Of a stretch of 64,000 bases of DNA, positions 1,119 through 17,958 are shown in pieces. Within the stretch, counting starts at the first letter, position 1. Every line of letters starts with the position of its first letter. Origin of the DNA: an uncultured Holophagae bacterium (lineage in GTDB: Bacteria; Acidobacteriota; Thermoanaerobaculia; Thermoanaerobaculales; Sulfomarinibacteraceae); assembly GCA_963797055.1 (NCBI GenBank), contig CAWCOD010000005.1:189995-253994 (forward strand), read 5' to 3'. Both the position numbers and the translations under genes were made by a program. Under the pieces are notes generated by a model. That model saw nothing but the letters and a program-made list of their open reading frames with translations, was not told where the DNA came from and ran no database searches.

Positions 1119-2319
1119 ATGAAGTCTCATCTCATCGTGGTCGTTCTGTGCCTTGTCGCCATGGTTGCCGGTGGCCAGGAGGCGCTGCAGGTGCCGCGGA
1201 GTTACCTCGCAGGCATCGTTGACGATGATCCGAATCCACTGCCCCGTCATCTGGCCGAAGCGGAGCGGGCGCTCCCAATCCCGCTCCCCGAGAGCTGGCC
1301 CGAGCTCGCGCCGCCCACCGGGACGGTTTCGACTCCGGCCGAGTATGCCGAAAACGACGGGTCTCTTGATCCGGTGGGGGTCCTTCAACTCGGTGCTCAC
1401 CGAGATGACCGTTGGAATCACAACCGGTGATCCCGATGCGGTGGTCCACATCCTGGTTTCCGGCGGGTCCCAGCAGGCGAGCGCCACATCGGTGCTGCAG
1501 GGGGCGGGGGCCGACCTGGATCAGGTGGATTTCATCACCTACTCCTCCAACTCGGTCTGGATCAGGGATTACGGTCCGAGGTTCATCGAAAACGATGGCA
1601 ATCGGGCCATCGTGGACCATGTCTACAACCGGCCGCGACCGCTTGACAATGCCTTCCCCGACTTCCTGGCGGCACTTTGGGGTGAACCGGCCTACGACAT
1701 CCCCCTGGTGCACGGCGGGGGGAACTTCCACCTCTTCGCCGACCGGGACGCATTTATGTCGGATCTGATCCTCGATGAGAATCCCGGGCTGACCGAACAG
1801 GACGTCATCGACTATTACGCCAGCTACGAGAATGTGTCGCTCACCATCATGCCCGGCTTTCCCACCTGGTTCGATTCCACCCAGCACATCGACATGTGGA
1901 TGCTGCCAATTTCGGACCGCGAGGTGATCATCGGCCAGTACGAGCCGTCGGATGGCCAGCCCTATACCATCACCGAGGACGCCGTTGCCGATCTCCAGGC
2001 GAGGGGATACACAGTTCACAGAACGCCGGGCTGGAACTCGGGCGGCACCCACTACACCTACACCAACGCGGTGGTGTTCAACGAGTTGGTCTTCATTTCC
2101 GAGTTTTCGGGTTATGCGGTCCAGAATGCCCAGGCGATGGCTGTCTTCGAGGCGGCCTTCCCCGACCACCAGGTGATCCCGGTGGACTGCTCGGATATCA
2201 TCCACTCCGCCGGGGCCATCCACTGCGTGGTCATGCATGTGCCCGAGATCGGGCTGATGCCGTTCGAAGACGGCTTCGAGTCCGGCGATCTCTCCGGCTG
2301 GACTGTAACGTTCCGTTGA
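1119..2319 (+). CDS. Agmatine deiminase / Porphyromonas-type peptidyl-arginine deiminase family protein, apparently secreted; reading frame changes near 1362
   Basis: ORF 1153..2319 carries family hallmarks (WIRDYGPRF, HGGGNFH, HIDMW, catalytic GAIHCVVMH). ORF 1119..1430, in another frame, gives signal peptide MKSHLIVVVLCLVAMVAGG and ...TPAEYAENDG. That joins LLIRWGS... of the main frame if one base near 1362 is skipped. An intact alternative start is ATG 1345. Confidence 0.75.
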
Positions 2320-2326
2320 TTGGTAT

Positions 2327-2496
2327 CATTTCGAATTTTGAATTTTGAATTTCGAATTCAAAAAATGGACCCACAGCCACGGCGTACGTTAAACGTTCAA
2401 CGTTAAACGTTACACGTTTGGCTCTTGACCCTTTGCCACAAACCCAGCCCCTGACGTTCAACGTTTAACGTGTAACGTTCAACGTGTAACGACGTG
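2327..2496. repeat. Tandem arrays: tttcgaa/ttttgaa heptamers (2327-2365) and two ACGTT-centred octamer arrays (2385-2419, 2452-2496)
   Basis: Direct reading: catttcgaattttgaattttgaatttcgaattc; acgttaaacgttcaacgttaaacgttacacgtt; acgttcaacgtttaacgtgtaacgttcaacgtgtaacg. Confidence 0.85.
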
Positions 2497-3455
2497 CTCA
2501 GCGTTGTACGTGGTGCCGGTCGCCGGTCATGTAGCCGCTCGAGGGAGGCGACGGCCTGCCGCCATTCCTCGCCGGTGATCCGTCGTCGAAGCTCCGGGAA
2601 GTCGGGAGTCGTCGCCGCCAGATGTGCGGGGTGGTACTGAGCCAGAAGCGACACGGCCACATCCGGTGACAACTCGGTTGCCACCCATTGGAGGCTATCC
2701 TCGATTCCAGCGAGGCCATCGGGAAGCACCAGCATCCGGATCAAGAGGCCGCGCAGGAGGGCGCCGTCCGGGGCGAGGATCCAGTCGTCCCCGACCTGGC
2801 GGTGCATTTCGGCGAGAGCCGCCCGCGCCCTGGCGGGATAGTCCTCGACTCCCGACAGGCGGCAGCCGGTTGCGGGGTCCGCGTACTTGAGATCGGGCAT
2901 GTAGATATCCACGATCCCGTCCAACATCCGCAGCGTGTCCACCGAGTCGTAGCCGTTCGAGTTGTAGACGATGGGCAGGGCCAGGCCCCGGCTGGTGGCG
3001 ATCTCCAACGCGCGCACGAGCTGCGGCACCTGGTGGCTGGGCGAGACCCAGTTGATGTTGTGGGCGCCGCGATCCTGCAGCTCGAGAAAGATGGCGGCGA
3101 GGGTCTCGGACCGGATCTCGTGTCCCACGAAGTCGGACGGCCGCTGCGAGATGTCGTGGTTTTGGCAGAAGACGCAGCACAGGTTGCAGTTGGCGAGAAA
3201 GACCGTCCCGGAACCTCGGCGGCCCGAGATCACCGGCTCCTCGCCGAAGTGGAGGTTACAGGACGCCACCACGGCCTCGACGCCTGTGGCGCAGCTGCCA
3301 AGCTCGGCACGACGGTCGACGCGACACCCGCGGGGACAGACCGCACAATCAGTGAGCATGGCGTCGAGCTGTCGCACGCGCTGGGTCAGCACCCCGCCGC
3401 GGTGCAGCCGAACGAAGCCCGCCCGAAATGGGAGTGACGGTTCTTCGGAATTCAT
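2403..3455 (-). CDS. Radical SAM protein (PflX / COG1313-like activase family)
   Basis: CNLCCVFCQN is a CxxxCxxC radical SAM motif, preceded by a Cys-rich CAVCPRGC segment. I prefer ATG 3455 (MNSEEPSL...) over the ORF-track start 3590. The last ~30 codons (..HVERYTLNVERQ..) are encoded by the ACGTT repeat arrays. Confidence 0.8.
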   Translation of the reverse strand: MNSEEPSLPFRAGFVRLHRGGVLTQRVRQLDAMLTDCAVCPRGCRVDRRAELGSCATGVEAVVASCNLHFGEEPVISGRRGSGTVFLANCNLCCVFCQNHDISQRPSDFVGHEIRSETLAAIFLELQDRGAHNINWVSPSHQVPQLVRALEIATSRGLALPIVYNSNGYDSVDTLRMLDGIVDIYMPDLKYADPATGCRLSGVEDYPARARAALAEMHRQVGDDWILAPDGALLRGLLIRMLVLPDGLAGIEDSLQWVATELSPDVAVSLLAQYHPAHLAATTPDFPELRRRITGEEWRQAVASLERLHDRRPAPRTTLSTSLHVERYTLNVERQGLGLWQRVKSQTCNV

Positions 3456-3514: not shown

Positions 3515-5188
3515 TCAATCCGGACGGGCGAGAGTTTCGAGACGGCCACCCCGCCAGAGGTAGGCGGGCATGCCGGGATACGCCGTCCACAGCGCCGAGT
3601 TGTCCCCGAGATCACGGGCGAAGATCAGGTCGTGGCGGCGGGGTCCGGTCATCATGCGGGACGCCATGGCCCAGTCTTGCCAGTCGTCATCGCCGAACAG
3701 GATCAGACCCCGTGCGACACCGGCATCGGCCACGGCCCGCTCGAGGGATGCGTCGACGCCGTTGTATCCGGTGTAGAGGCGGAGGCGTTCGGGCAGAGTT
3801 ACGGCGGTGGAGCCGGCAAGTACGGCGAACAAGAGGGCGGCGGCGATCCAGGTGATTGCGGTTCCGCCAGGCTCGGCCGGACATTTTTCGCTCCGGTCTC
3901 CTCCCGGGGCGATGCGGGCGAGCTCCTGGAAGCCCCGGGCGGTGAGCAAAAAGAGCGCGGCGAAGGCGTCAAAGTAATAGCGGGGGCCGAATCCGTGGAG
4001 ACCGTGGGCCTGGGTGCCCACATGGACCGCCATCAGGCAGAGGAACCAACCGGCCAACAGGATGTCCGATTTGGTGTATCGACGCAGCAGGAAGGGCACC
4101 ATCGTCAGGGCCAACGGCAGGGCGAGGATCAGCCAACCGCCGGAAAGACCCCAACCCCACCCATGGAGCGCCGGGAGGGTGGAGGCAAAAATGGCGTCCA
4201 GATTCTGGATTCCGAAGGGCACATTGGCCAGGGAGTACATGGATCCCCGGGCAAATGTGTAGGGCAGTGAGAGTGGGCTACCGGTGATGATGAGGTTCCC
4301 GATCAACAGCGGCACGGTGCCGGCGACGCCCCCGGTGATCACGGCGGCCAACCTCGCCCGAGATGATTGCCCGCGGTGGGAATTTCGGCAGTCCATCAGC
4401 AGCTGGATGCCGCACGGGACGGCCGCCGCGAGGGCGGACAGTGGCCGAATTCCGAAGGCCAAACCGAGGAGGATGCCGCCGGCCAGCGCGAGGCCGATGC
4501 CTTGTCGCCGCCTCGAGCGCTGGAGCAGGACAAGAAAGCCGAGAACGAGGGTTGCGCTGCCGGCATGGGACAGGTGGGAGCCGAAAATCACCCGCGCCAT
4601 GGGCGACAGGACACCTAGGCACGCCGCCGCACAACCCACCCGTTGGTCGTAGAGCGTGTTCCCGAGCCACCAGAGCAGCATGACGTAGAGGCCGCCGAGC
4701 AACGGAGCCACCGTCCAGGCCGCACCCGCCGCGAGCCCCGTGGCCAGCATCGCCGGCCAGCCGAAGGGATAGTGGGCGATCCAATGGCCGTCGACCACAT
4801 AGGTGAAGGGGACGTCGAGGTGTTGTTGGATGGCGGAAACCGGTGGCACGAGTCTACCGTCGAGCAGCCACCGCGCCTGGAGAAGATAGACCACGGAGTC
4901 GGGCAGGTGGGGGAGGCGCTCCAGGATTTCCTCGGCAAACCAGAGCGAACAGAAAGTGGCGGTGGCCGCCAGACCGGCGGGGATGATTGTGGCGCGGAGG
5001 CCAGTGGTCAGTGGCGGATCCGGGTGACTGGGGCGGGTGTGTCCTCCCGACCCCGGACAGTCCGAGAAAGAGCGCGATGAGCAGGGCCGCCACTGCCGCC
5101 GATTTGAGCGCGAGTGCGATTGCCGCGGCAAGGTCCCGTGCCGGTTGGGGATCGAGGCTGGTGACCGCGATCGGCACCCATCCTTCAT
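3515..5188 (-). CDS. Polytopic membrane protein, GT-C fold glycosyltransferase-like (ArnT/PMT-like); 5' end uncertain
   Basis: Many hydrophobic helices. The first-loop segment LPDSVVYLLQARWLLDG resembles the acidic loop of ArnT/PMT enzymes. The first ~50 codons of the ORF are R/S/P-rich and look out of frame. Confidence 0.55.
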   Translation of the reverse strand: MKDGCRSRSPASIPNRHGTLPRQSHSRSNRRQWRPCSSRSFSDCPGSGGHTRPSHPDPPLTTGLRATIIPAGLAATATFCSLWFAEEILERLPHLPDSVVYLLQARWLLDGRLVPPVSAIQQHLDVPFTYVVDGHWIAHYPFGWPAMLATGLAAGAAWTVAPLLGGLYVMLLWWLGNTLYDQRVGCAAACLGVLSPMARVIFGSHLSHAGSATLVLGFLVLLQRSRRRQGIGLALAGGILLGLAFGIRPLSALAAAVPCGIQLLMDCRNSHRGQSSRARLAAVITGGVAGTVPLLIGNLIITGSPLSLPYTFARGSMYSLANVPFGIQNLDAIFASTLPALHGWGWGLSGGWLILALPLALTMVPFLLRRYTKSDILLAGWFLCLMAVHVGTQAHGLHGFGPRYYFDAFAALFLLTARGFQELARIAPGGDRSEKCPAEPGGTAITWIAAALLFAVLAGSTAVTLPERLRLYTGYNGVDASLERAVADAGVARGLILFGDDDWQDWAMASRMMTGPRRHDLIFARDLGDNSALWTAYPGMPAYLWRGGRLETLARPD

Positions 5189-5723
5189 CCCAGATGAAGA
5201 TGTCGTTGTTGATCAGACCGCGCCGGAAGCTGACGGAAATCGTGGGCTTCCCCAGAAGTCTCACGATGAGGTGTTGGTGGATGCGGCCGGTGAACACCGT
5301 GGATATTTCAAAGGGTCCGGAGAGGGCAACGGGGTGGTCGAACACGGATCCATGTGCCGATTGATTATCGATCTCCCAGTCGGCAACCGGCGCCGCCGAC
5401 CCGGGAGGCAGGCGAAAGGGTGACGGTAGATCGACGATCTCCGGAGGAGACGCGCCCCGGCGGATCTCCAGCGACCGGCCGCCGGTTGGGAAAACCGACG
5501 CCCAGGTCCAGATCTCGATGCGATCCACCGACTCGATGGCCACGGGTGCGGTCAGCACCGAGTCCGCAACGATGACGCGAAGGGTGTTTCCCGAGCTGAA
5601 GATCTCCAGGCTGGTGCTGCGGTCCATGGCCCGTGCGGCCGTCCAAAGCGCCGCAGCCGCGACGATCCACAGGAGGATGCGCCCGATTCTGGCATCGCGG
5701 TGGCTGGCCCCTGCTCGGCTCAT
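4854..5723 (-). CDS. Membrane-anchored protein of unknown function; its 3' part overlaps the GT-C ORF in another frame (possibly one gene split by a frame break)
   Basis: ATG 5723 gives MSRAGASHRDARIGRILLWIVAAAALW (N-terminal TM), then a ~190-aa soluble domain and a second TM LAAAIALALKSAAVAALLIALFLGL. Beyond about 5040 this frame decays to P/R/G-rich text while the GT-C frame becomes protein-like. Confidence 0.5.
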   Translation of the reverse strand: MSRAGASHRDARIGRILLWIVAAAALWTAARAMDRSTSLEIFSSGNTLRVIVADSVLTAPVAIESVDRIEIWTWASVFPTGGRSLEIRRGASPPEIVDLPSPFRLPPGSAAPVADWEIDNQSAHGSVFDHPVALSGPFEISTVFTGRIHQHLIVRLLGKPTISVSFRRGLINNDIFIWDEGWVPIAVTSLDPQPARDLAAAIALALKSAAVAALLIALFLGLSGVGRTHPPQSPGSATDHWPPRHNHPRRSGGHRHFLFALVCRGNPGAPPPPARLRGLSSPGAVAARR

Positions 5724-5827
5724 GGGTTCATGATACGCGGTAGACCTTTTGGCGATCTCGCAGTTGGGGAATGGGATAGGATGATCGGCACGATCGACTC
5801 CAGAGGGAGTCAAAGAGGACCAGGGGA

Positions 5828-8173
5828 ATGAGTATGGTGTCGAGGGCGACTTTCGCGCTGGTGGTTGGTGTCTTGTGGGCGGGTTTTGTCATGGCCCAGA
5901 CGCAGCCGCCGCCGTTTGGCGACCGGCGTGGCGGCGAGGAGGACCGGATCCGACAACGGATCGAGTGGTTCGTCCAAACAAGAGGACTCGATCGGGTGTC
6001 GAGGGCGGATCGATTGCGCAGCGAGGCTGTGCTTGCGGTCAAGGCGGTTCGAGACGCGGACTCCGGCCGACGGTCGCCACCATGGACACCGCTGGGCCCG
6101 AACTCGATGACCATGTTGGATTGGCGGATTGAGGACGTTTCGGGCCGGGTTTCAGCCTTGGCGGTCCATCCCGAAGATGAGGACATCATCTATCTTGGTT
6201 CGGCCTCCGGCGGGCTCTGGAAGACCATCGACGGTGGCGGCTCATGGTCGCCGATCTTTGACGACGTAGGAACGCTGACCATCGGCAGCGTGGTGATCGA
6301 TCCGTCCTCTCCGGACACGTTGTGGGTGGGCACCGGTGAGCAGGGGCAGAGCTGCTGGTCGTACTTCGGGATGGGGCTTTTCCGCTCCACCGACGGGGGC
6401 GAGTCGTTCGAACCGGTCAATGGATCGGATTCTCAAACCCTGGACCTGTCTTTCATTACCGGCATCGTCGTCCATCCCGATCGTCCCGGGAACATCGTCG
6501 TGGGGGGTGAGACCTGGTGCGATGACGGTGCCTTTCTCTACGGTGGGCTCTATCGGTCCACCGACGGGGGGACCTCGTGGCAGCGGGAGATTTCGGGCGC
6601 CGTCACCGACGTGATCATGGACCCCAGCAGGCCCGACACGCTCTACAGTGCGGTAGGTCGGTGGTCGAATAACGTCAACGGCGTCTACCGCAGTACCGAT
6701 GCGGGCGCGACGTGGACCAGACTCGAGGGCGGTCTGCCGTTCGGCGCTCAAGTGGGTCGGACCCGGCTCGCCATGGCGCCTAATGACAGCGCGACGATCT
6801 ACGCCTTGATGAACCACGAATCAGGGGTGGAGTTGTACCGTTCCACCGACGGTGGCGACACGTGGGTTCTCACCAACCCCGACGCCTGCGACGGTCAATG
6901 CTGGTACAACCTGTGCCTTGCGGTGCACCCGCTCGATGCCACGCGACTTCTGCTGGGCGCGGTCCGCTTCTACGCTTCCCTCAACGCCGGGACCACGCTT
7001 GCTCCGCTGATCGACTTCTGGGGCCCCGGTCAGACGGTCCACCAGGACATTCACGTGCTGGTCTATTCACGGTTGGATCCAAACCGGTTTTGGGTTGCGG
7101 GCGACGGCGGTATCTGGCGATCCGACGACGGTGGTGTCAATTTCGAAAACCTCAACGCAAACTTGAACCTCACCCAGTATTACGACATCGCGGTCCATCC
7201 TTCAGATGCTTCGACTGTCTTTGGTGGTTCGCAGGACAACTCCTCGTCGGCCACCATGGGCGATATCAAATGGGACGTCACAGTGGTCACCGGAGATGGG
7301 TTCATCAACGTGGTGGACTCCGAAGATCCGCAGATCGTTCTTCAAACCTCGTACCCGTACGAGGGGTACCCTTCGCTCTTCCAGTCCATTTCAGGGGGGA
7401 TCCCCAACAGCTTTCAGTGGTTGTGGCTCACCGGTGTCACGCAGTACGAACCGTGGCCGTGGGTGACGCCCCTTGCGTCGTTGGCTTCGGGGAGCGGCAA
7501 CAACCATCTGTTGCTCGGATCGGACCACGTCTATCGGTCATCCACCGCCCACCCCAGCCAATGGACAAAGGTCTCGGGTGATCTCACCGGAACCAACGGA
7601 AGCCTGAGCGTGCTGCTGCCGGTGGCCAACCAGGACACGGTCATGGTCTACGCAGGGACCGGAAACGGCAAGATCCACAGAACCGACGACGTCCTGGCGG
7701 CCGCCCCCGAATGGGTCGATGTGACGGGCAACTACCCCGGAGACACGGTCACCGACATCGCCGTGGATCCCCAAGATCCGCTCGTCGTGCTGGTCACCCG
7801 CGGCCAATTCGACGCCAGTCGTCTCTACCGGTCCTCAACCGGCGGCACCGCGTGGCAGGCGGTTGGCGCCGGGTTGCCAAACGTGCCTGCCAACACCGTG
7901 GTGGTGGATCCGACGGACGGACGCCGGGTATTTGTTGGGACCGACGTGGGTGTGTTTGTCAGCACGGACCGAGGATTGAGCTTTGAGCCGATTGTGGATG
8001 GCCTGCCCTTGGGTTTGGTTGTGACAGACTTGGAGGTGGACGGCGATCCCCACGTTTTGACGGCGGGAACCTATGGTCGCGGCGCGTGGCAGCTCGAGCT
8101 CCGACCAATCGATCTCTTGGACGACGGCTTCGAGTCGGGGGATCTCTCCGCCTGGACGACCAGCTATCCGTGA
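5828..8173 (+). CDS. Secreted BNR/Asp-box repeat beta-propeller protein (sortilin/Vps10/GH74-like)
   Basis: Signal peptide MSMVSRATFALVVGVLWAGFVMAQ. Eight Asp-box-like motifs: IDGGGSW, STDGGESF, STDGGTSW, STDAGATW, STDGGDTW, SDDGGVNF, SSTGGTAW, STDRGLSF. Confidence 0.85.
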   Translation: MSMVSRATFALVVGVLWAGFVMAQTQPPPFGDRRGGEEDRIRQRIEWFVQTRGLDRVSRADRLRSEAVLAVKAVRDADSGRRSPPWTPLGPNSMTMLDWRIEDVSGRVSALAVHPEDEDIIYLGSASGGLWKTIDGGGSWSPIFDDVGTLTIGSVVIDPSSPDTLWVGTGEQGQSCWSYFGMGLFRSTDGGESFEPVNGSDSQTLDLSFITGIVVHPDRPGNIVVGGETWCDDGAFLYGGLYRSTDGGTSWQREISGAVTDVIMDPSRPDTLYSAVGRWSNNVNGVYRSTDAGATWTRLEGGLPFGAQVGRTRLAMAPNDSATIYALMNHESGVELYRSTDGGDTWVLTNPDACDGQCWYNLCLAVHPLDATRLLLGAVRFYASLNAGTTLAPLIDFWGPGQTVHQDIHVLVYSRLDPNRFWVAGDGGIWRSDDGGVNFENLNANLNLTQYYDIAVHPSDASTVFGGSQDNSSSATMGDIKWDVTVVTGDGFINVVDSEDPQIVLQTSYPYEGYPSLFQSISGGIPNSFQWLWLTGVTQYEPWPWVTPLASLASGSGNNHLLLGSDHVYRSSTAHPSQWTKVSGDLTGTNGSLSVLLPVANQDTVMVYAGTGNGKIHRTDDVLAAAPEWVDVTGNYPGDTVTDIAVDPQDPLVVLVTRGQFDASRLYRSSTGGTAWQAVGAGLPNVPANTVVVDPTDGRRVFVGTDVGVFVSTDRGLSFEPIVDGLPLGLVVTDLEVDGDPHVLTAGTYGRGAWQLELRPIDLLDDGFESGDLSAWTTSYP

Positions 8174-8275
8174 ATTTTTAATTCTCAATTTTGAATTTTG
8201 GATTTCCACCCTCCCCCCGTTTGATCCGGGCGGGTGGGGGCATAATTTAAAATTGAGATTTCAGAATTAAAAATT
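8173..8275. repeat. Foldback element between convergent genes: heptamer arm + C-box ... G-box + heptamer arm
   Basis: AATTTTTAATTCT (8173-8185) is the exact inverted repeat of AGAATTAAAAATT (8263-8275). The inner arms are imperfect. Core boxes are CCACCCTCCCCCC (8208-8218) and GGGCGGGTGGGGG (8228-8240). It may act as a bidirectional terminator. Confidence 0.75.
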
Positions 8276-8294
8276 TGTCGTCAAGGACGACCGG

Positions 8295-10130
8295 TTAGTT
8301 CCCCTGCTCGGAATCATCGACGAAATCGACCCGCTCGATCTGGTGGAGCATGTAGAGGAGGCGCAGAATCTGCTCCTCGTCCTTCTCCCGTTTGATCAGG
8401 TCGGCCGGTGTGGGCTGCTCGAGCTGGATTGCCCGCAGCAGTCGTTGCTGACGACCCGAAAGTTGGAGATCGGATGGGAGGTCGTTGCCGGTGGCGATCA
8501 GGCGGTGACGGAGCTGGGCCTCCAACTCCCGCCGGATGACCACCAGCGGCACCCTGTCCTGGACGCCCTCGTGGATGAGGGTGAAGGTCCTCAGATTCAG
8601 GGGCATTCCGGGCTCCGGCGGGAGCACGCCGCGATAGTAGGCGTAGGTGCCTCCGGTCCACGAGAAGACCTCCAGGATCCGGTCGCGGATCTGATCGGCC
8701 AGGTACCGGTACATTGAGTTTGGCGACAGGGCCTTCATGGCCAGGGTGGCCTCCATGAAGCGCAGCCCGTGTTTGGCCGCCCGATCGAGAACGGCGCCGT
8801 GTTGCTCTCTGGTGAGGGCGCCCCTCGCCACGAGGTACTCACCAAAGAACTCTCGTTCCACATTCGAAACCGCAAAGGTCGGCTCGCCGTCCTCGAAAAA
8901 AATCGTCTTGCGCACCGGATCGCGAATGAGATCGAGCTGGCCCGTCTCCCGGGCTTCTCGCAGGCGCTTGAAGAGCCGGGCCACCGGCAGGTGGAGCAAA
9001 TCGCCGTCCATGTCGGGTCTGGGTGCGACGTCCCGGGCCCCCTGGGGGCCCACCGGGACCTTGGGGACCCCGGGAAGATTGAGGGCCAAAGGGTTCCCTC
9101 GGTCCGGCGGCGTGACCTGTTGTTCGGTGGAATCCGGTGAGGTCGCCGAGCTCGCCTGGTGCATGACCTCGTCTCGCGACATCTGCTCCGCCTGCAGCTC
9201 GCTCTCTCGTTCGGCTTCGATCTCGTTGGCGTAAAGATGTTCCATGAACATCCTGAGTTCCACGTCGGACATGGGTCGGCTGGCGTCGTCGACGCTCCGG
9301 AGAAGGTCCTCACGAAAGGCATTGGCGTCCGGATAGCGGTGGGCCGGGTCCGCAGCCAGAACCCGTTCCAGAACCCGCTGGATCGGCTCGGGTAGGTTTG
9401 CGATCCGGCTCCGGTCGAATCCGCCCTGCCGGATGTCGAGCAGCATGGCCATGTCGTTGGGAGCCTCTCGAAAAGGGGCCATGGTCAGCATCTCGGCGAG
9501 GACCACGCCGAGGGAGTAGGTGTCGCTGCGGCCGTCCACCCGGGCGCCGGCCGCTCCCTCCGGGCTGATGTACCGCACCTTGCCCTTAATCACGCCGAGC
9601 TCGGTGTGTTCTTCGCGGTTCTTGGCGCGTGCGATGCCGAAGTCCGTGAGCTTGACCTCGCCCGAGTAGGAAATCAGGATGTTGCGAGGGCTCACGTCTC
9701 GATGAACAATCTCCTGCGGCTGGCCGTCAAGCGAGCGGAATTCATGGGCGTAGTGCAACCCGGCGCAGGTCTCGGCGATGACCCGAGTGGCGAGGCGCCA
9801 CGGGCAACGCTGTTGTTGGGAGACCAGCCGTTGGACAACGCGGAAGAGGTCGCGGCCCGCCACGTACTCCATGGCGATGTAGGGCATCCCGTCTTCCTCG
9901 CCGAGATCGTAGATCTGGACCACGTTGGGGTGCATCAACCTGGACGCGATCTTGGCTTCGTCGGTGAACATGCGCAGGAATCGTTTGCGCTCGAGCAGAT
10001 GGGGGTGGATCCGTTTGATCGCAATGGTTTTTGTAAAACCCCGGATGCCCACCAGCTTGGCACGATACACATCGGCCATGCCGCCGGTGGAGATCTTGTC
10101 CAGAAGAAGGTATTTCCCGAATCTTTTCAT
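8295..10130 (-). CDS. Ser/Thr protein kinase (Hanks type) with C-terminal DUF4388-like domain
   Basis: GGMADVYRA...AIKRI (ATP-binding Lys), HRDVSPRNIL catalytic loop, DFGIA. The C-terminal ~250 aa (LPVARLFKRLREARETGQLDL..IFFEDGEP) resembles DUF4388. Confidence 0.85.
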   Translation of the reverse strand: MKRFGKYLLLDKISTGGMADVYRAKLVGIRGFTKTIAIKRIHPHLLERKRFLRMFTDEAKIASRLMHPNVVQIYDLGEEDGMPYIAMEYVAGRDLFRVVQRLVSQQQRCPWRLATRVIAETCAGLHYAHEFRSLDGQPQEIVHRDVSPRNILISYSGEVKLTDFGIARAKNREEHTELGVIKGKVRYISPEGAAGARVDGRSDTYSLGVVLAEMLTMAPFREAPNDMAMLLDIRQGGFDRSRIANLPEPIQRVLERVLAADPAHRYPDANAFREDLLRSVDDASRPMSDVELRMFMEHLYANEIEAERESELQAEQMSRDEVMHQASSATSPDSTEQQVTPPDRGNPLALNLPGVPKVPVGPQGARDVAPRPDMDGDLLHLPVARLFKRLREARETGQLDLIRDPVRKTIFFEDGEPTFAVSNVEREFFGEYLVARGALTREQHGAVLDRAAKHGLRFMEATLAMKALSPNSMYRYLADQIRDRILEVFSWTGGTYAYYRGVLPPEPGMPLNLRTFTLIHEGVQDRVPLVVIRRELEAQLRHRLIATGNDLPSDLQLSGRQQRLLRAIQLEQPTPADLIKREKDEEQILRLLYMLHQIERVDFVDDSEQGN

Positions 10131-12152: not shown

Positions 12153-13418
12153 GTGAATCGTCGTGATGCCCCCGGTTTCCGCTGGTTTCGCCTGACGTGG
12201 ATTGGGCCGGGGTTGGCGGTGGCGGCAACGGGCGTGGGCGCCGGCGACCTCCTGGCAGCCATGCTCGCAGGAGCCGGTTTTTCCGCCACTCTGCTGTGGG
12301 TGATCATCGTCGGCGCAGCCCTGAAATTCACCCTCAACGAGGGCGTGGCGCGCTGGCAGGCAGCCACGGGTACGACCCTATTGGAGGGATGGTGTCTGCA
12401 TTTGGGGTCATGGTTTACCGGCGGTTTTTTGGCCTACCTCGTGCTTTGGTCCTTTATCGTCGCCGGAGGCTTGATGAGCGCGTGCGGCGTCGCGGCTCAC
12501 GCCCTGGCGCCGATGGTGGGCATCAAGACCTGGGCCGTCTCGCAGTCCCTGCTCGCGGCCACCCTCGTGCTGGTGGGAGGATACGGCCTTTTCGAGCGGG
12601 TCATGAAGCTGCTGATCGGGATCATGGTACTGACCCTGCTGTTCAGCGTTGTGATGGTGGCGCCGGATCTGATGTCGATGTTACGTGGTCTGGTGCCGAC
12701 TCTGCCACCGGGCTCCGCCGCCGCGACCTTGAGCCTTATGGGAGGTGTGGGCGGCAGCGTGACCTTGTTGTCCTACGGATATTGGATCCGCGAGAAAGGC
12801 TGGGCAGGGGTTGGGGCCATGGAGAGGATTCGCGTGGATCTCGGTTTGGGCTATGCGCTGACCGGGGTGTTCGGCATCGCCATGCTGCTGCTCGCGGCAA
12901 CCGCCTTGGCCGGGGCGGGAGGCATGCCCGCCGGCAGCCAGGGCTTGGTGGTGTGCGCCGACGCGATCCGGGACTCGACGGGACAGAGGTTGGGGCCGGC
13001 TGCCGGTCAGGCCGTTCGACTCATCTTCCTGGTGGGCGTTTGGGGGGCTGTGTTCACCAGCACCCTGGGCGTATGGCAGGGAGTGCCGTACCTGTTCGCG
13101 GATTTTCTCGGCATCCTCCGCGGCCGCGGGACCGAGCCGGTGGATACCTCTGGCTGGACCTATCGCGGCTACCTGCTCTTTCTGGCGGTTCCACCCCTTG
13201 TGTTGGTGTTTTTCGGTCGACCGATCTGGGTCATTACGGTCTATACCTTGACCAGCGGCTTGTTCATGCCCGTGCTTGCGGCCGCCCTGCTGTGGCTGAA
13301 CTCGCGGAAACGCCTGGTGGGAGATCTTCGCAACGGCCGCCTCGTCACCGCGGCCTTGCTGCTGGCGTTGGTTCTGTTTGGAGCCATCGCCGTGAGGACC
13401 GCGATTGATCTGTTCTGA
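12153..13418 (+). CDS. NRAMP-family (MntH-like) membrane transporter, divergent TM1 motif
   Basis: IGPGLAVAATGVGAGDLLAAMLAGAGFSATLLWVIIV aligns with the NRAMP TM1 region, but the canonical DPGN reads GAGD(L). I chose GTG 12153 because the ORF-track start 12033 overlaps the upstream gene (stop 12133). Confidence 0.7.
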   Translation: MNRRDAPGFRWFRLTWIGPGLAVAATGVGAGDLLAAMLAGAGFSATLLWVIIVGAALKFTLNEGVARWQAATGTTLLEGWCLHLGSWFTGGFLAYLVLWSFIVAGGLMSACGVAAHALAPMVGIKTWAVSQSLLAATLVLVGGYGLFERVMKLLIGIMVLTLLFSVVMVAPDLMSMLRGLVPTLPPGSAAATLSLMGGVGGSVTLLSYGYWIREKGWAGVGAMERIRVDLGLGYALTGVFGIAMLLLAATALAGAGGMPAGSQGLVVCADAIRDSTGQRLGPAAGQAVRLIFLVGVWGAVFTSTLGVWQGVPYLFADFLGILRGRGTEPVDTSGWTYRGYLLFLAVPPLVLVFFGRPIWVITVYTLTSGLFMPVLAAALLWLNSRKRLVGDLRNGRLVTAALLLALVLFGAIAVRTAIDLF

Positions 13419-14174: not shown

Positions 14175-16010
14175 GTGGAGGGTTGGTTGGCTCATCGTGT
14201 TCTGACTGTGTTGGCGAGCGCCCTTGTGATCCTGTGGGTGGGGAATGTGGCGGGTCAAGAAGCGACAGCGATTCCCGAGCCCGTGGCGGTCGTTGATGCG
14301 CCGGTTGTTTCAGAGGTAGTTGTCGAGGGCTCGGAGGAGCCGCTGCCGGTATTCGTGGGCGAAGTGGATGTCAGCCTGATCGGTCTGTACGTCAGCGTTG
14401 TGGATTCCAAGGGGCGACCAGTCGCCGGGCTCACCAAGGACGACTTCGAGGTCTTCGAGGGTGGTGATCCGGTGACCATCACCAACTTCGAGGCGATTGA
14501 TCGCCAGGAACTCAAAGCACTGGACATTGACGGCGCCAAGCCTGCGCAGGGTGAAAGTCCGGAGGGTCGTTCCGTCGTCATTCTGTTCGACAGCCCGAGT
14601 CTCGAGCGTAAGACGCGGAAACGGGTCATCAAGGCGCTCCGAGAGTTTATTGCAGAGGGTCTGCGGCGGGGCGACCAGTACATGATCGCGGTCAACACCG
14701 GCCAGCTCGAAATCGTAAGGCCATTTTCCACCGACGAGGTGGCCCTCCACGCCGCGCTCCAGGTGGTTGCCGACAGCCCGTGCGGCGGTGATTCGAGGAA
14801 ACAGAGCAATCGTTATCTCAAGCGAAATATATATGGCGAGAACATTTATGACGCCCCAATGATGCCGGGGACGGCGAATCCCAGTCTTGCCGCGTCGGCG
14901 ATCATGAGGGCCAACAGACTGTTGGCCGGGATCGAGAGCATGCGGCGGATCGAATACGAGCGGATCAATCAGGCCCTGAGTGTGACCGACGAGATGTTGC
15001 GGGCGATGGCGGGAATCGAGGGTCGCAAGACGGTCGTTTGGATTGGTGAAGATCTCGCGATTCAACCCGGGTACGACGTCTATGCGGTGTGGTACAGCAG
15101 GGTGCAGCCCCTGGCGGCTGTGATGCCGGTGGATCAGCCCCATATCTGGGGCTCTCAGCTGCAACTCGATCGCCAGTTCGCCACGGTCGCCGCCAACGCA
15201 CAGGCGGCGGGGGCCACGATCTACGTTGTCGACGCCAGCGACCGCGATCGAGAGATGGCGACGGCAGATTTCTCACCATCGAATGCAACGTCCTTGTTGA
15301 TGGCCGAGTCGGGCGGTTCAGCCTGGACACCCGGCGTCGATTTTGCCGCGGTTCGAAACCTCACCGAGGGTGGCGAGTTCATGGCGGTGGCCACGGGGGG
15401 CGCGGCCTTCGGAAACACCAGGAACATCCCGAGTATCCTGGATACCCTGGCGGACTACGTGTCCACCTACTACTACATCGGGTATCGCAGGGAGGGACCG
15501 CCGGACGGCAGGCGCCACAACATCAACGTCAAGGCAAAGGGTCAGGGAATGCGAGTCCGTCACCACGAACAGGTTTTGGACAAGACGGCACCGCAGAAGT
15601 TGGCGGACCTTGCGATGTCGAGGCTTCGACTGAACCTCGGCGACAACGGGCTCGACCTGGCGGTTCAACTCAACGAACCCGAACAGTTGGACGGCAAGAC
15701 CTTCGTGCTCCCGATACAGCTCACCATGCCAGTGGACAAACTGGTGCTTCTGCCCGATTCGGACAACCACATCGGCCAGATCCTGGTGGCGGTGGCGGTG
15801 CTCGACGATGACGGGCGGACCGCTCCGGTCCGACTCATCCGGCTGCGCCTGACCATCCCGTCGGAGCGGTACAACGAAGGCGCGATCGCCAGTCAACCGA
15901 TCCGTTTGAAGCTCGGCGAAAAAACCCAGCGGATCTCGATCGGTGTTCGCGACGAGGTGTCCGGTTTGGAGGCATCGCTGGCAATTCCCGTCGCGGATCT
16001 CCAGCTCTGA
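14175..16010 (+). CDS. VWFA-related Acidobacterial-domain protein (TIGR03436-like), exported
   Basis: GTG start, N-terminal hydrophobic signal. VDVSLIGLYVSVVDSKGRPVAGLTKDDFEVFEGGDPVTITNFE and SVVILFDS fit the family layout. Confidence 0.75.
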   Translation: MEGWLAHRVLTVLASALVILWVGNVAGQEATAIPEPVAVVDAPVVSEVVVEGSEEPLPVFVGEVDVSLIGLYVSVVDSKGRPVAGLTKDDFEVFEGGDPVTITNFEAIDRQELKALDIDGAKPAQGESPEGRSVVILFDSPSLERKTRKRVIKALREFIAEGLRRGDQYMIAVNTGQLEIVRPFSTDEVALHAALQVVADSPCGGDSRKQSNRYLKRNIYGENIYDAPMMPGTANPSLAASAIMRANRLLAGIESMRRIEYERINQALSVTDEMLRAMAGIEGRKTVVWIGEDLAIQPGYDVYAVWYSRVQPLAAVMPVDQPHIWGSQLQLDRQFATVAANAQAAGATIYVVDASDRDREMATADFSPSNATSLLMAESGGSAWTPGVDFAAVRNLTEGGEFMAVATGGAAFGNTRNIPSILDTLADYVSTYYYIGYRREGPPDGRRHNINVKAKGQGMRVRHHEQVLDKTAPQKLADLAMSRLRLNLGDNGLDLAVQLNEPEQLDGKTFVLPIQLTMPVDKLVLLPDSDNHIGQILVAVAVLDDDGRTAPVRLIRLRLTIPSERYNEGAIASQPIRLKLGEKTQRISIGVRDEVSGLEASLAIPVADLQL

Positions 16011-16015
16011 TCTGG

Positions 16016-17958
16016 CTACATCCCGAGCCGCTTCCGAGTCAGCGCCTCGAGCCCACCGGCCAGCACCAGATCCTGGGCGGCGGGGCCGAGGGGTGACAGT
16101 CGAAACTCCTCGCCACGCCAGGTGGCCACCGAGCTGCGAAAATCCACCGACAGATCGCCGGCAGGGATGGTCTTCGACCCGTCCTCCGCTTCCTTCTGAA
16201 ACGCCGTTCGGATCGCCTGTGACAGGGCCGGGCTCTCGAGGCAGATAAAGGCGTTGTTGAAGGCGTTCCGCAAGTAGGTTTGGGAAAAGCTGGCGGCGAT
16301 GACCATGCGAATGCCCCGGTACTTCAGCGCGGTGGCGGCCTGCTCGCGGGAGGAGCCGGTGCCGAAGTTGCGACCGGCGATGATGATGTCCCCGTCGTCG
16401 GCGATCTCTTGAAAGTCGGGATCGTAGTTGGCCATGGCGAACCCCGCCATCTGCTCCGGCGTGAGATCGTCCCGGTACGTCACATCCTTGCCGTAGACGC
16501 CGTCGGTGTTCAGGTTGTCCACGGGCAGCAACAGGGCGCGACCGTGCAGTTGTTCTGGAAATCCCTCGCGGATGTCGACAGATCGGGCGGGGGACGTCCA
16601 TCCGAGATCGGTGAAACTGTAATCGGGGACAGAGTCTCCGAGGTCAACCGGTCCGGTGATGCGTCCGGCGATGGCCGAGGCGGCCACAACCGCCGGGCTC
16701 GCCAGATAGGCCTTGGCGTCTCGGGAACCCATGCGGCCCTTGAAATTGCGGTTGGTAGCCGAAATGCCCACCTCGCCAGCTTCGAGAAGACCCACACCGA
16801 GTCCGATGCAGGCACCGCAGCCCGGCGGCAACGTCTTCGCCCCGGCATCCACGAGTGTCTGCCAAACACCCTTGGCCTCCGCCTCCCGCTGGACCTCCGC
16901 CGACGCGGCGGCGACATAGAGCTCGACGCCGTCGGCGACGCGGTGGCCGCGCAACACCTCTGCCGCCTCGAAGAGGTCGTCGAAGCGGGAGTTCACGCAG
17001 GACAACAAATAGGCCTTGTTCACCGCCACAGGCTCGGCGTCGAAGACGGCCACGGGGCGGGCTACCGCCACCGAGTCGGGACCCGCCACATGGGGCGAGA
17101 CCCGGCCGAGGTCGAGGTGGATCTCGGCGGCGTACTCGGCTCCGTCATCGGGCGTCGGTGGGTGCTCGTCCCAACCCGCGATGTGGTCGCGGGAGAGTCG
17201 CTCCGGGAAGCCCTTCGACGCCAGCCTCGCCTCCCGTTCGCGGAGGTACATGCAGTGACGTCGTCGTAGGGGAACCATCCCACAAGCGCACCCCATTCGG
17301 TGGTCATGTTGGCGACGGTCATTCGCTCAGAGATCGACAGCGTGCCGATCCCCGGGCCGTGGAACTCCACCGCGGCGTTGAGCACCTCTCCGGAGGAGTA
17401 GAGACTGCACAGGGTGATGATCACGTCCTTGCCCACCACACCGCCCCGTAGCCGCCCCTCGAGAACCACCTTCACCGACCGCGGGACCTGCCACCAGGTG
17501 GTGCCGGTGGCCCAGATCGCGGCGGCGTCGGTGCGCACGACCGGCGTGCCCACGGCCGCCAGCGCGCCGTACATGTTGGAATGGGAGTCCGAGGCCACCA
17601 CCAAGCTACCTGGGTGAACGAAGCCATTCTCCACCATCAGTTGGTGCCCGATTCCGGCTCCCGCCGGGTGAAAGACGATGCCCTGATCGCGGGCAAAGGC
17701 CTCGATGGCACCGTACTTGGCGAGGTTGGCGTCGGTGGTGTCCTGGACGTTGTGGTCCAGGGCGAAGATGGGCTGGGCGGGATCCGCCACCCGGACGGCG
17801 CCGATGGCCCTGAACTTGGGCAGGATGGCACCGGTGTTGTCGTGGGTCATCACATGGAATGGACGGATGGTGACCATGTCGCCGGCGCGGACCTCCTGCC
17901 CGGGTGTCAGATCGACCGCGTGGGACTGAGCGATTTTTTCGGTGATGGTCTGCGGCAT
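16016..17958 (-). CDS. Aconitase-family dehydratase, fused large+small subunit (homoaconitase / 3-isopropylmalate dehydratase-like); frame break near 17250
   Basis: ORF 17062..17958 (ASDSHSNMYGALAAVG, MTTEWGALVGWFPYDDVT) continues as ..YLREREARLA.. in ORF 16016..17296 (CGACIGLG, ATNRNFKGRMG, swivel-domain GRNFGTGSSREQAA). The span of 1943 nt is not a multiple of 3. Confidence 0.8.

Follow-up and report, generated by a model that had tools for sequence, protein, structure and literature searches.

A 19-residue tail ending many exported Acidobacteriota proteins looks like an undescribed address tag

Small C-terminal sorting signals consist of a motif, a transmembrane helix, and a cluster of Arg residues, in that order (10.1101/2023.06.07.544157), and the cargos of the GlyGly-CTERM and MYXO-CTERM signals are exoproteins that diderm bacteria retain at their surface (PMC11980579, PMC12889589). 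The T9SS CTD, by which Sec-exported hydrolases are extended at the C terminus, has no membrane anchor. T9SS cargos include the gingipains and the Porphyromonas PPAD, which carries a C-terminal sorting domain. To our knowledge, every known short C-terminal sorting signal requires a membrane-spanning segment, and we know of no linear C-terminal signal without a membrane anchor that has been established for Sec substrates of diderms. Protein secretion and display in the Acidobacteriota, which are abundant in soils, sediments, and sponges, are as far as we know almost unstudied.

Here we describe a tail found at the C terminus of two proteins encoded in a 64-kb window, as we call the whole stretch of DNA that was analyzed. 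The motif DGFESGDLSxWT followed by four residues forms the shared C terminus of a deiminase and a BNR/sortilin propeller. Since the same tail ends many exported proteins of the Acidobacteriota, it appears to be an address or anchoring tag that has not been described before.

The two tailed genes and the closest described signals

The main ORF of the PAD_porph-type deiminase lies at 1153..2319 on the + strand (Pfam PAD_porph, 2.7e-27), and its catalytic domain ends in ...AGAIHCVVMHVP. This first tailed ORF terminates in ...MPFEDGFESGDLSGWTVTFR (...HVPEIGLMPFEDGFESGDLSGWTVTFR), with the D of DGFE at 2269 and the stop codon at 2317-2319. The 19-residue C-terminal tail unit, PFE-DGFESGDLSGWTVTFR (positions -3 to 16), occupies 2260..2316 on the + strand, directly before the stop. 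The 5' part of the gene (1119..1366, + strand), which includes the signal peptide (MKSHLIVVVLCLVAMVAGGQEA...), is encoded in another reading frame than the remainder. In tblastn, residues 1-83 of an intact 399-aa orthologue, P0122, match this part in frame +2 of the excerpt with 88% identity, and alignment to P0122 places the signal peptide MKSHLIVVVLCLVAMVAGG... in the other-frame ORF 1119-1430. The frameshift lies near 1362-1367, and homology of the main ORF to its orthologues begins at about 1368. The public annotation likewise breaks the gene in two, giving products of 103 aa (P0495) and 304 aa (P0121), the latter 100% identical to the main ORF. The nearest solved relative of the deiminase is the Porphyromonas peptidylarginine deiminase 4YT9 (E = 2e-27).

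The second tailed ORF, at 5828..8173 on the + strand, encodes a BNR/Sortilin-Vps10-type beta-propeller of 781 aa (Pfam Sortilin-Vps10/BNR, 3.8e-22; stop at 8171-8173). It begins with a Sec-type signal peptide, MSMVSRATFALVVGVLWAGFVMA followed by Q, at about 5828-5896 and terminates in ...DLLDDGFESGDLSAWTTSYP (...LELRPIDLLDDGFESGDLSAWTTSYP), with the D of DGFE at 8123. Its 19-residue tail unit, LLD-DGFESGDLSAWTTSYP, lies at 8114..8170 on the + strand, directly before the stop, and has Leu at position -2 in place of the usual Phe. The tails of the two window proteins are identical at 11 of the 12 motif residues, belong to the "GDLS" subtype, and show a D-to-stop distance of exactly 16 codons in both genes. 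A six-frame scan of the 64-kb window revealed no further copies of the motif. Since Pfam places one protein in PAD_porph and the other in Sortilin-Vps10/BNR, the two are unrelated, and the first-pass annotation was right that two unrelated proteins share a C-terminal motif, which can be read directly from the ORFs. It had also credited both proteins with an N-terminal signal peptide; this holds outright for the propeller, whose signal peptide is of the plain Sec type, and for the deiminase only across the frameshift, in the other frame.

The tail resembles LPXTG/sortase, PEP-CTERM/exosortase, GlyGly-CTERM/rhombosortase, and MYXO-CTERM/myxosortase signals in being short, in lying at the extreme C terminus, and in occurring on proteins with signal peptides. 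Like these tripartite signals, it is found on many unrelated cargo families, several per genome, and is restricted in lineage. Both window proteins combine a signature near the C terminus with an N-terminal signal peptide (in the deiminase via the bridged frameshift). Unlike the tripartite signals, however, the tail has neither a transmembrane segment nor a basic cluster, and it usually ends in Val-Pro. The motif is followed by VTFR or TSYP and then the stop in the window proteins, with no hydrophobic transmembrane segment, and elsewhere 67 of 103 tails among the matches listed end 5 residues past the Trp. The consensus end, x-x-V-P, contains no basic cluster, and no hydrophobic segment was seen to be encoded in the sequences after the tail stops. 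Given that both the transmembrane segment and the basic cluster are absent, the tail is not a sortase- or exosortase-type signal; with no transmembrane segment and an end 4 residues past the motif, it cannot be held in the membrane for an intramembrane or membrane-bound transpeptidase.

The likeness to the T9SS CTD extends from the anchorless C-terminal position to the cargo, since the two repertoires are strikingly close (PAD_porph, Peptidase_C25, S8, M14, M28, FG-GAP, and PKD). Whereas the T9SS CTD of Bacteroidota is a folded beta-sandwich of ~70 to 100 residues, the tail has 19 residues, is predicted to be unstructured, and occurs in Acidobacteriota; Por_Secre_tail/TIGR04183, the T9SS CTD model, gave no match on the tail. 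Dockerin- and PPC-type modules, like the tail, are interchangeable C-terminal add-ons at the same junction, although they are folded domains of 45 to 200 residues. Dockerin_1, a duplicated Ca-binding loop-helix of ~60 to 70 residues, gave no Pfam match on the tails. Type I secretion substrates lack a Sec signal peptide, whereas both window proteins and 61 of 76 tagged proteins have signal-peptide-like N termini, which argues against a type I secretion signal.

None of the Pfam-A or NCBIfam 20.0 models matched the tail at E values up to 1-10, either in the two whole proteins or in isolated tail peptides, and the PEP-CTERM model, which served as positive control in the same run, matched a Fimbriimonas protein at 1.5e-5. 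Given the lack of a model match, the successful control, and the absence of a hydrophobic or basic end, we conclude that the tail is neither PEP-CTERM nor LPXTG nor a T9SS CTD, none of which the first-pass annotation had recognized in it. No PDB chain containing the tail was found, and nothing relevant emerged when the literature was searched, in full text, for the motif strings or for sorting signals of Acidobacteriota. The tail appears to be uncatalogued in the model libraries and literature searched.

Recurrence, cargo, and conservation of the tail

The pattern D-G-F-E-[ST]-G-D-x-[ST]-x-W was back-translated into a degenerate DNA pattern, and one genome per species was scanned (596 Gb). More than 118 loci were observed, relative to the ~4 to 5 expected by chance in 596 Gb by our own calculation, and the tail motif recurs far above chance. 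Among the matches listed, a stop codon lay no more than 20 codons downstream in 100 of the 127 in-frame matches that run into a stop, and the commonest spacing from D to the end was exactly 16 residues (67 of 103 tails). Several positions were conserved among these matches even though they lie outside the search pattern, namely, [LIV] at -3, F at -2 (94 of 103), T8, A10, S12, and V15, while a terminal Pro (P16) was present in 58 of the 67 listed tails with a spacing of exactly 16. The resulting consensus is [LIV]-F-x-D-G-F-E-[ST]-G-D-[T/L]-S-A-W-[ST]-x-x-V-P-COOH. Since conservation includes positions -3 and -2 and continues through P16, the unit comprises 19 residues; it follows a variable stretch rich in Pro, Gly, and Ala.

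In a second search, which used no word filter, the 19-position profile was compared with 1.84 billion representative proteins and gave 4665 matches at E ≤ 1e-3. Among the best 150 of these 4665, a C-terminal copy was present in 92 proteins, with a spacing of exactly 16 in 75 of them, and 55 proteins had internal copies only, spaced 180 to 300 residues apart. Tandem double tails occurred in 13 proteins from the same best 150, and the tandem copies show that the tail behaves as a discrete unit. A profile search of a third large protein set returned short gene fragments only. The comparative search proposed in the first-pass annotation came out in its favor, given that many exported families were tagged, almost always at the C terminus, and that signal-peptide-like N termini were enriched. 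It had missed, however, that the motif is not unique to tails, as the motif also forms strand 1 of a jelly roll in other phyla and in phages.

When 88 tail-bearing proteins were compared with Pfam, they fell into at least 59 families. The tagged peptidases included S8, C25, M14, M28, and trypsin-like enzymes; the other tagged families included FG-GAP, InhA-like MAM, BNR/sortilin, reelin-B, and CarboxypepD_reg proteins, together with beta-helix, PKD, Calx-beta, cadherin-like, and Chlamydia-PMP repeats and PAD_porph. To judge from these assignments, the repertoire is typical of secreted or surface proteins. Signal-peptide-like N termini were found in 61 of 76 tagged ORFs (80%), relative to 168 of 364 neighboring ORFs (Fisher P = 3e-8), by a crude heuristic for a hydrophobic N terminus that has a background of 46%. 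Based on record titles, 92 of the 102 tail-type matches among those listed came from Acidobacteriota, mainly from Thermoanaerobaculia (including Candidatus Multivoradales) and also from Holophagae and unclassified members. The remaining hosts were a few sponge MAGs, single Myxococcota or "Deltaproteobacteria" bins, and one Bacteroidota bin. Several MAGs had 4 to 5 tail loci each among the matches listed.

The 67 canonical tails use both TCN and AGY codons for Ser and differ synonymously in their codons for Gly, Asp, Glu, and Phe; their pairwise nucleotide identity is 0.72 at the first codon position, 0.77 at the second, and 0.54 at the third. This pattern shows that the peptide, rather than the DNA, is under selection. 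In 94 PAD orthologues (57 to 84% identity), the tail residues F382 and W394 never vary, and conservation reaches at least 90% at D384, F386, E387, and G389. The conservation of the tail in these orthologues matches that of the catalytic residues, and the linker is free to vary.

The junction with the cargo and the relation to a jelly-roll domain

The fold of the propeller ends in ...GTYGRGAWQ. Among its 120 best homologues, 21 carry the full tail and 26 carry a short tail (IFADGFE plus 2 to 8 residues); the others have no tail or have long extensions, such as PKD-type domains, that do not open with the motif. The two short-tail homologues with a named source come from Rhodanobacteraceae and Dokdonella. 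The tail is present in 99 of the 120 closest PAD homologues, the DGFEDGTTDAWSAVVP variant included, and the variants DGTTDAW and SGTLGAW were also seen. PAD members from Planctomycetota have an Asp/Asn-rich extension of 45 to 70 residues in place of the tail. A reading of the alternative extensions as dockerin-like, made by eye, found no Pfam confirmation at E ≤ 0.01.

AlphaFold2 models built from deep alignments had a mean pLDDT of 88.7 for PAD, with 52 to 54 in the tail, and of 90.2 for the propeller, with values of 55, 50, and 38 for the last 21 residues. Since the pLDDT of the tail is low and the bodies of the cargo proteins are modeled confidently, the tail is an appended flexible unit that lies outside either fold; the models predict that it is unpacked in both cargo families. 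We also considered an intramolecular strand or cap and rejected it, given that the preceding folds differ, that some orthologues have no tail, and that AlphaFold models the tail with little confidence.

In other phyla and in phages, the motif and its upstream [LIV]-F open a concanavalin-like jelly-roll domain of ~190 to 240 residues. This domain is located right after the signal peptide, at the N terminus of the ORF, or after a linker, and it is often repeated. It was found in Chloroflexota, Actinomycetota, Armatimonadota, CPR bacteria, Archaea, Vicinamibacteria, and a few Thermoanaerobaculia, as well as in 27 of 35 phage-contig matches. Its Pfam matches are weak (Polysacc_lyase [PF14099], CBM_4_9, Laminin_G_3, and 3keto-disac_hyd) and fall below the cut-off bar one, a phage protein that passes the PF14099 cut-off with 31.1 bits versus 29.9. 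Two residues into the motif, this match begins at profile position 1, and in domain-type proteins the motif also aligns, below the cut-off, with the start of CBM_4_9. The motif is therefore assigned to the first strand of a concanavalin-type jelly roll.

The window tails carry the N-terminal strand motif of the PF14099/CBM_4_9/LamG-like class, F-x-D-G-F-E-x-G-x(4)-W, and the signature that the tail shares with strand 1 of these domains is [LIV]-F-x-D-G-F-E-x-G-x-x-x-x-W. The beta-sandwich of ~130 to 210 residues that would follow strand 1 is absent, however, from the window genes and from most acidobacterial matches, in which the stop lies 16 codons past the D. The tail differs from the domain in three respects: the buried Phe8 is replaced by Thr, the S-x-x-V-P end is conserved, and nothing follows the strand. 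Thr occupies position 8 in 78 of 109 tails, whereas 41 of 52 domain copies have a hydrophobic residue there, mostly Phe (P = 8e-14). Judged by these residues, the tail form is more than a mere truncation of the domain and has a signature of its own.

How the tail might be read

All ORFs in 118 flanks of 8 kb each were clustered in two ways, and no recurrent family of sorting enzymes, proteases, or modifiers was found; Ser/Thr and His kinases, the sole recurrent untagged family in these flanks, were dismissed as ubiquitous background. No sortase-, exosortase-, or rhombosortase-like gene was found among the window genes examined (six neighbors scanned against Pfam). The first-pass annotation had proposed either a sorting or anchoring tag or a recognition tag for a protease or modifier. 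Its modular tail at a fixed position stands; since no family of such enzymes recurs in the flanks, the function of the tail is one that we infer. The window neighborhood comprises PolA, PAD, a radical-SAM protein, a polytopic membrane protein, the propeller, a Ser/Thr kinase, and Usp, and it is syntenic with that of a 70%-identical relative (contig L119). In both, the polytopic membrane protein is encoded between the two tagged genes. It has a weak likeness to putative GT-C glycosyltransferases (NF047440, 1.5e-13, below the cut-off; archaeal STT3, 0.003), which lends slight support to a modification hypothesis.

Several other explanations have to be weighed against an address tag. A classical tripartite signal cleaved by sortase, exosortase, rhombosortase, or myxosortase would account for the C-terminal position, the many cargo families per genome, and the signal peptides, but it is extremely unlikely, given that only 4 residues follow the motif, with no hydrophobic helix and no Arg cluster (10.1101/2023.06.07.544157), and that no CTERM model matched while the PEP-CTERM control was positive. 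AT-rich heptamer arrays lie 3' of both window tail stops, and the window assembly contains at least two frameshifts, near 1362-1367 and at about 4850-5190, as might be expected if coding end, stop, and arrays were united in a DNA-level repeat or mobile cassette or if the tails were an assembly artefact. We regard this as next to impossible, since third codon positions are free to vary, orthologues at 60 to 90% identity inherit the tail together with the gene, and in other genomes an AT-rich stretch follows only 4 of 101 tail stops. The array motif is present elsewhere in the window too, and the arrays, to which the tail had initially been tied, are unconnected with it; a mobile cassette of tail plus arrays was rejected in view of the codon variation and of the flanks in other genomes. 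Alternatively, the tail could be a functionless vestige, namely, strand 1 left over from a lost C-terminal jelly-roll domain. Full domains that open with the identical motif do occur in Chloroflexota, Actinomycetota, Archaea, and phages and in some Acidobacteriota, and the propeller family contains progressively shorter tails (IFADGFE plus 2 to 8 residues). Yet the length and the terminal V-P are uniform over at least 59 unrelated families, the tail is conserved like catalytic residues in PAD orthologues, the Thr8 signature is specific to tails, and the long extensions of propellers do not begin with the motif, all of which makes a vestige very unlikely.

Two further explanations would give the tail a function other than that of an address. 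It could be a self-sufficient sticky mini-module, an acidic and aromatic hairpin-like peptide (D, E, and D plus F, F, and W) that binds envelope or matrix polysaccharide, possibly via Ca2+, and so keeps exoenzymes associated with the cell or matrix without dedicated protein machinery. The derivation of the motif from strand 1 of carbohydrate-binding or lyase-type jelly rolls, the avidity that tandem tails would add, the lack of a partner gene in the flanks, and a cargo made up mainly of degradative exoenzymes and adhesin-like repeats are all consistent with such a module. A lone jelly-roll strand, however, does not make up a sugar-binding face, and the conservation of V-P-COOH (58 of 67 tails among the matches listed) suggests that a protein recognizes the terminus, so we consider a self-sufficient module unlikely. 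The tail could also be a site of modification or processing, either through O-glycosylation of Thr/Ser by a periplasm-facing GT-C-type transferase or as a propeptide cut by a C-terminal protease. Although T8, S9, and S12 are conserved and the GT-C-like polytopic membrane protein lies between two tagged genes, this gene order is merely conserved between close relatives, no GT-C-like family recurs beside tagged genes in the 118 other loci, and the DGTTDAW and SGTLGAW variants alter the hydroxyl pattern. A modification or processing site is decidedly unlikely on this evidence.

We favor, with moderate confidence, the address tag over these explanations: the tail is an autonomous peptide module on Sec-exported acidobacterial proteins and most likely a post-Sec address tag that is read by binding. 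A short variable linker joins the tail to Sec-exported proteins of many unrelated folds. In sequence the tail matches jelly-roll strand 1, but it now stands alone, with its own signature and a defined free C terminus. The analysis establishes that the tail is conserved, fixed in position, modular, taxonomically restricted, selected as a peptide, and not packed onto its cargo, and it establishes the cargo repertoire. Sec export would bring the tagged cargo to the periplasm, where the flexible tail would then be recognized by binding rather than by a sortase-like transpeptidase, and recognition would lead the cargo to cross the outer membrane or to be kept at the cell surface. Both the address or retention role and the noncovalent reading are what we infer here; the kinship of PAD with Porphyromonas PPAD, a T9SS cargo, was counted for the address tag by analogy. 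The tail may also have a purely structural or adhesive role, since the motif is an ordinary domain strand elsewhere and, in rare cases, lies near N termini or forms linker repeats.

One specific form of recognition would be strand donation, in which the tail acts as an orphan donor strand that completes, in trans, an incomplete PF14099/CBM4_9-like jelly-roll receptor at the surface or in a secretion pore. We consider this form distinctly improbable. If it were true, dozens of unrelated exoenzymes would dock by beta-strand complementation, and a principle like that of cohesin-dockerin or chaperone-usher systems would be contained in a 19-residue tag, a new class of diderm sorting or anchoring.

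More generally, a sorting tag without a membrane segment would imply a different principle of recognition. The tail groups peptidases, glycoside-active propellers, adhesin-like repeats, and deiminases into one coherent cargo class and offers a precise handle for phylogenetic profiling of the machinery, as well as a candidate portable tag for surface display. The 19-residue profile suffices to predict the tagged secretome from sequence.

Repeated, shortened and phage-borne forms of the tail

The tail unit is not confined to a single copy per protein. In P0246, P0253, P0259, P0260, P0266, P0277, P0285 to P0287, P0292, P0301, P0323 and P0339, two complete tails stand in tandem at the C-terminus, 21 to 24 residues apart. 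In P0270 two copies of the unit directly follow the signal peptide, and in P0274 and P0275 the unit serves as an internal linker repeat.

Shortened forms were found at the ends of orthologues of the BNR/sortilin propeller (among them P0022, P0025, P0049, P0064, P0070, P0077, P0102 and P0105), which finish with IFADGFE or IFRDGF and then a further 2 to 8 residues. The source organism is named for two of these alone, P0077 (Rhodanobacteraceae) and P0105 (Dokdonella), and the core [LIV]-F-x-D-G-F-E may be in use outside the Acidobacteriota too.

The motif is also common among phage contigs, with 35 matches in the viral loci L120 to L154. There it mostly sits at the N-terminal end, or close to it, in jelly-roll proteins of ~220 to 420 aa (PF14099/CBM4_9-like matches), and the tail form is present on eight of the contigs, of which seven have a G+C content of 57 to 71% and one (L137) a G+C content of 45%.

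A membrane protein between the tagged genes, and two frameshifts

Between the deiminase (PAD) and propeller genes lies a gene for a polytopic membrane protein (window 3515-5813, minus strand), with a counterpart at 7484-9781 (minus strand) of L119, the contig of a syntenic relative. The protein had no Pfam match; the LA_3751/LA_3752 putative glycosyltransferases gave a sub-threshold similarity (1.5e-13), as did archaeal STT3 (0.003). Judged from sequence, it is possibly a periplasm-facing GT-C enzyme.

This gene is frameshifted in the window: residues 12-190 and 238-728 of its single 765-aa L119 orthologue align to different frames. The PAD gene is likewise broken, near 1362-1367, into pieces of 103 and 304 aa, such that 5 kb of the window holds two frameshifts. 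These reflect either indel errors in the assembly or decay of both genes.

Intergenic repeats and a hairpin

Two kinds of heptamer array occupy window 2320-2500, 3' of the PAD stop: a TTTGAAT-type array at 2325-2360, and AACGTTn-type repeats in two blocks, one at about 2385-2415 and the other at about 2455-2495, with a GC-rich spacer between them. Related copies of AATTTTGAATTT occur at 491, 8187 and 23417 (6 matches versus 0.02 expected). Since a tail stop in a Holophagae MAG (L005) is followed by three copies of GTCAAAA, such arrays may be an acidobacterial intergenic feature of broader occurrence. L119 has a Transposase_20 gene and two genes of the 23S_rRNA_IVP family (12749-13120 and 15914-16285); the corresponding window positions hold intergenic repeats only.

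The propeller and kinase genes converge on a near-perfect hairpin of 107 nt (8171-8277), which has a GC-rich core with AT-rich heptamer arms on either side and a folding energy of -42.4 kcal/mol (z = -5.3). The hairpin probably represents a bidirectional terminator or a REP-like element.
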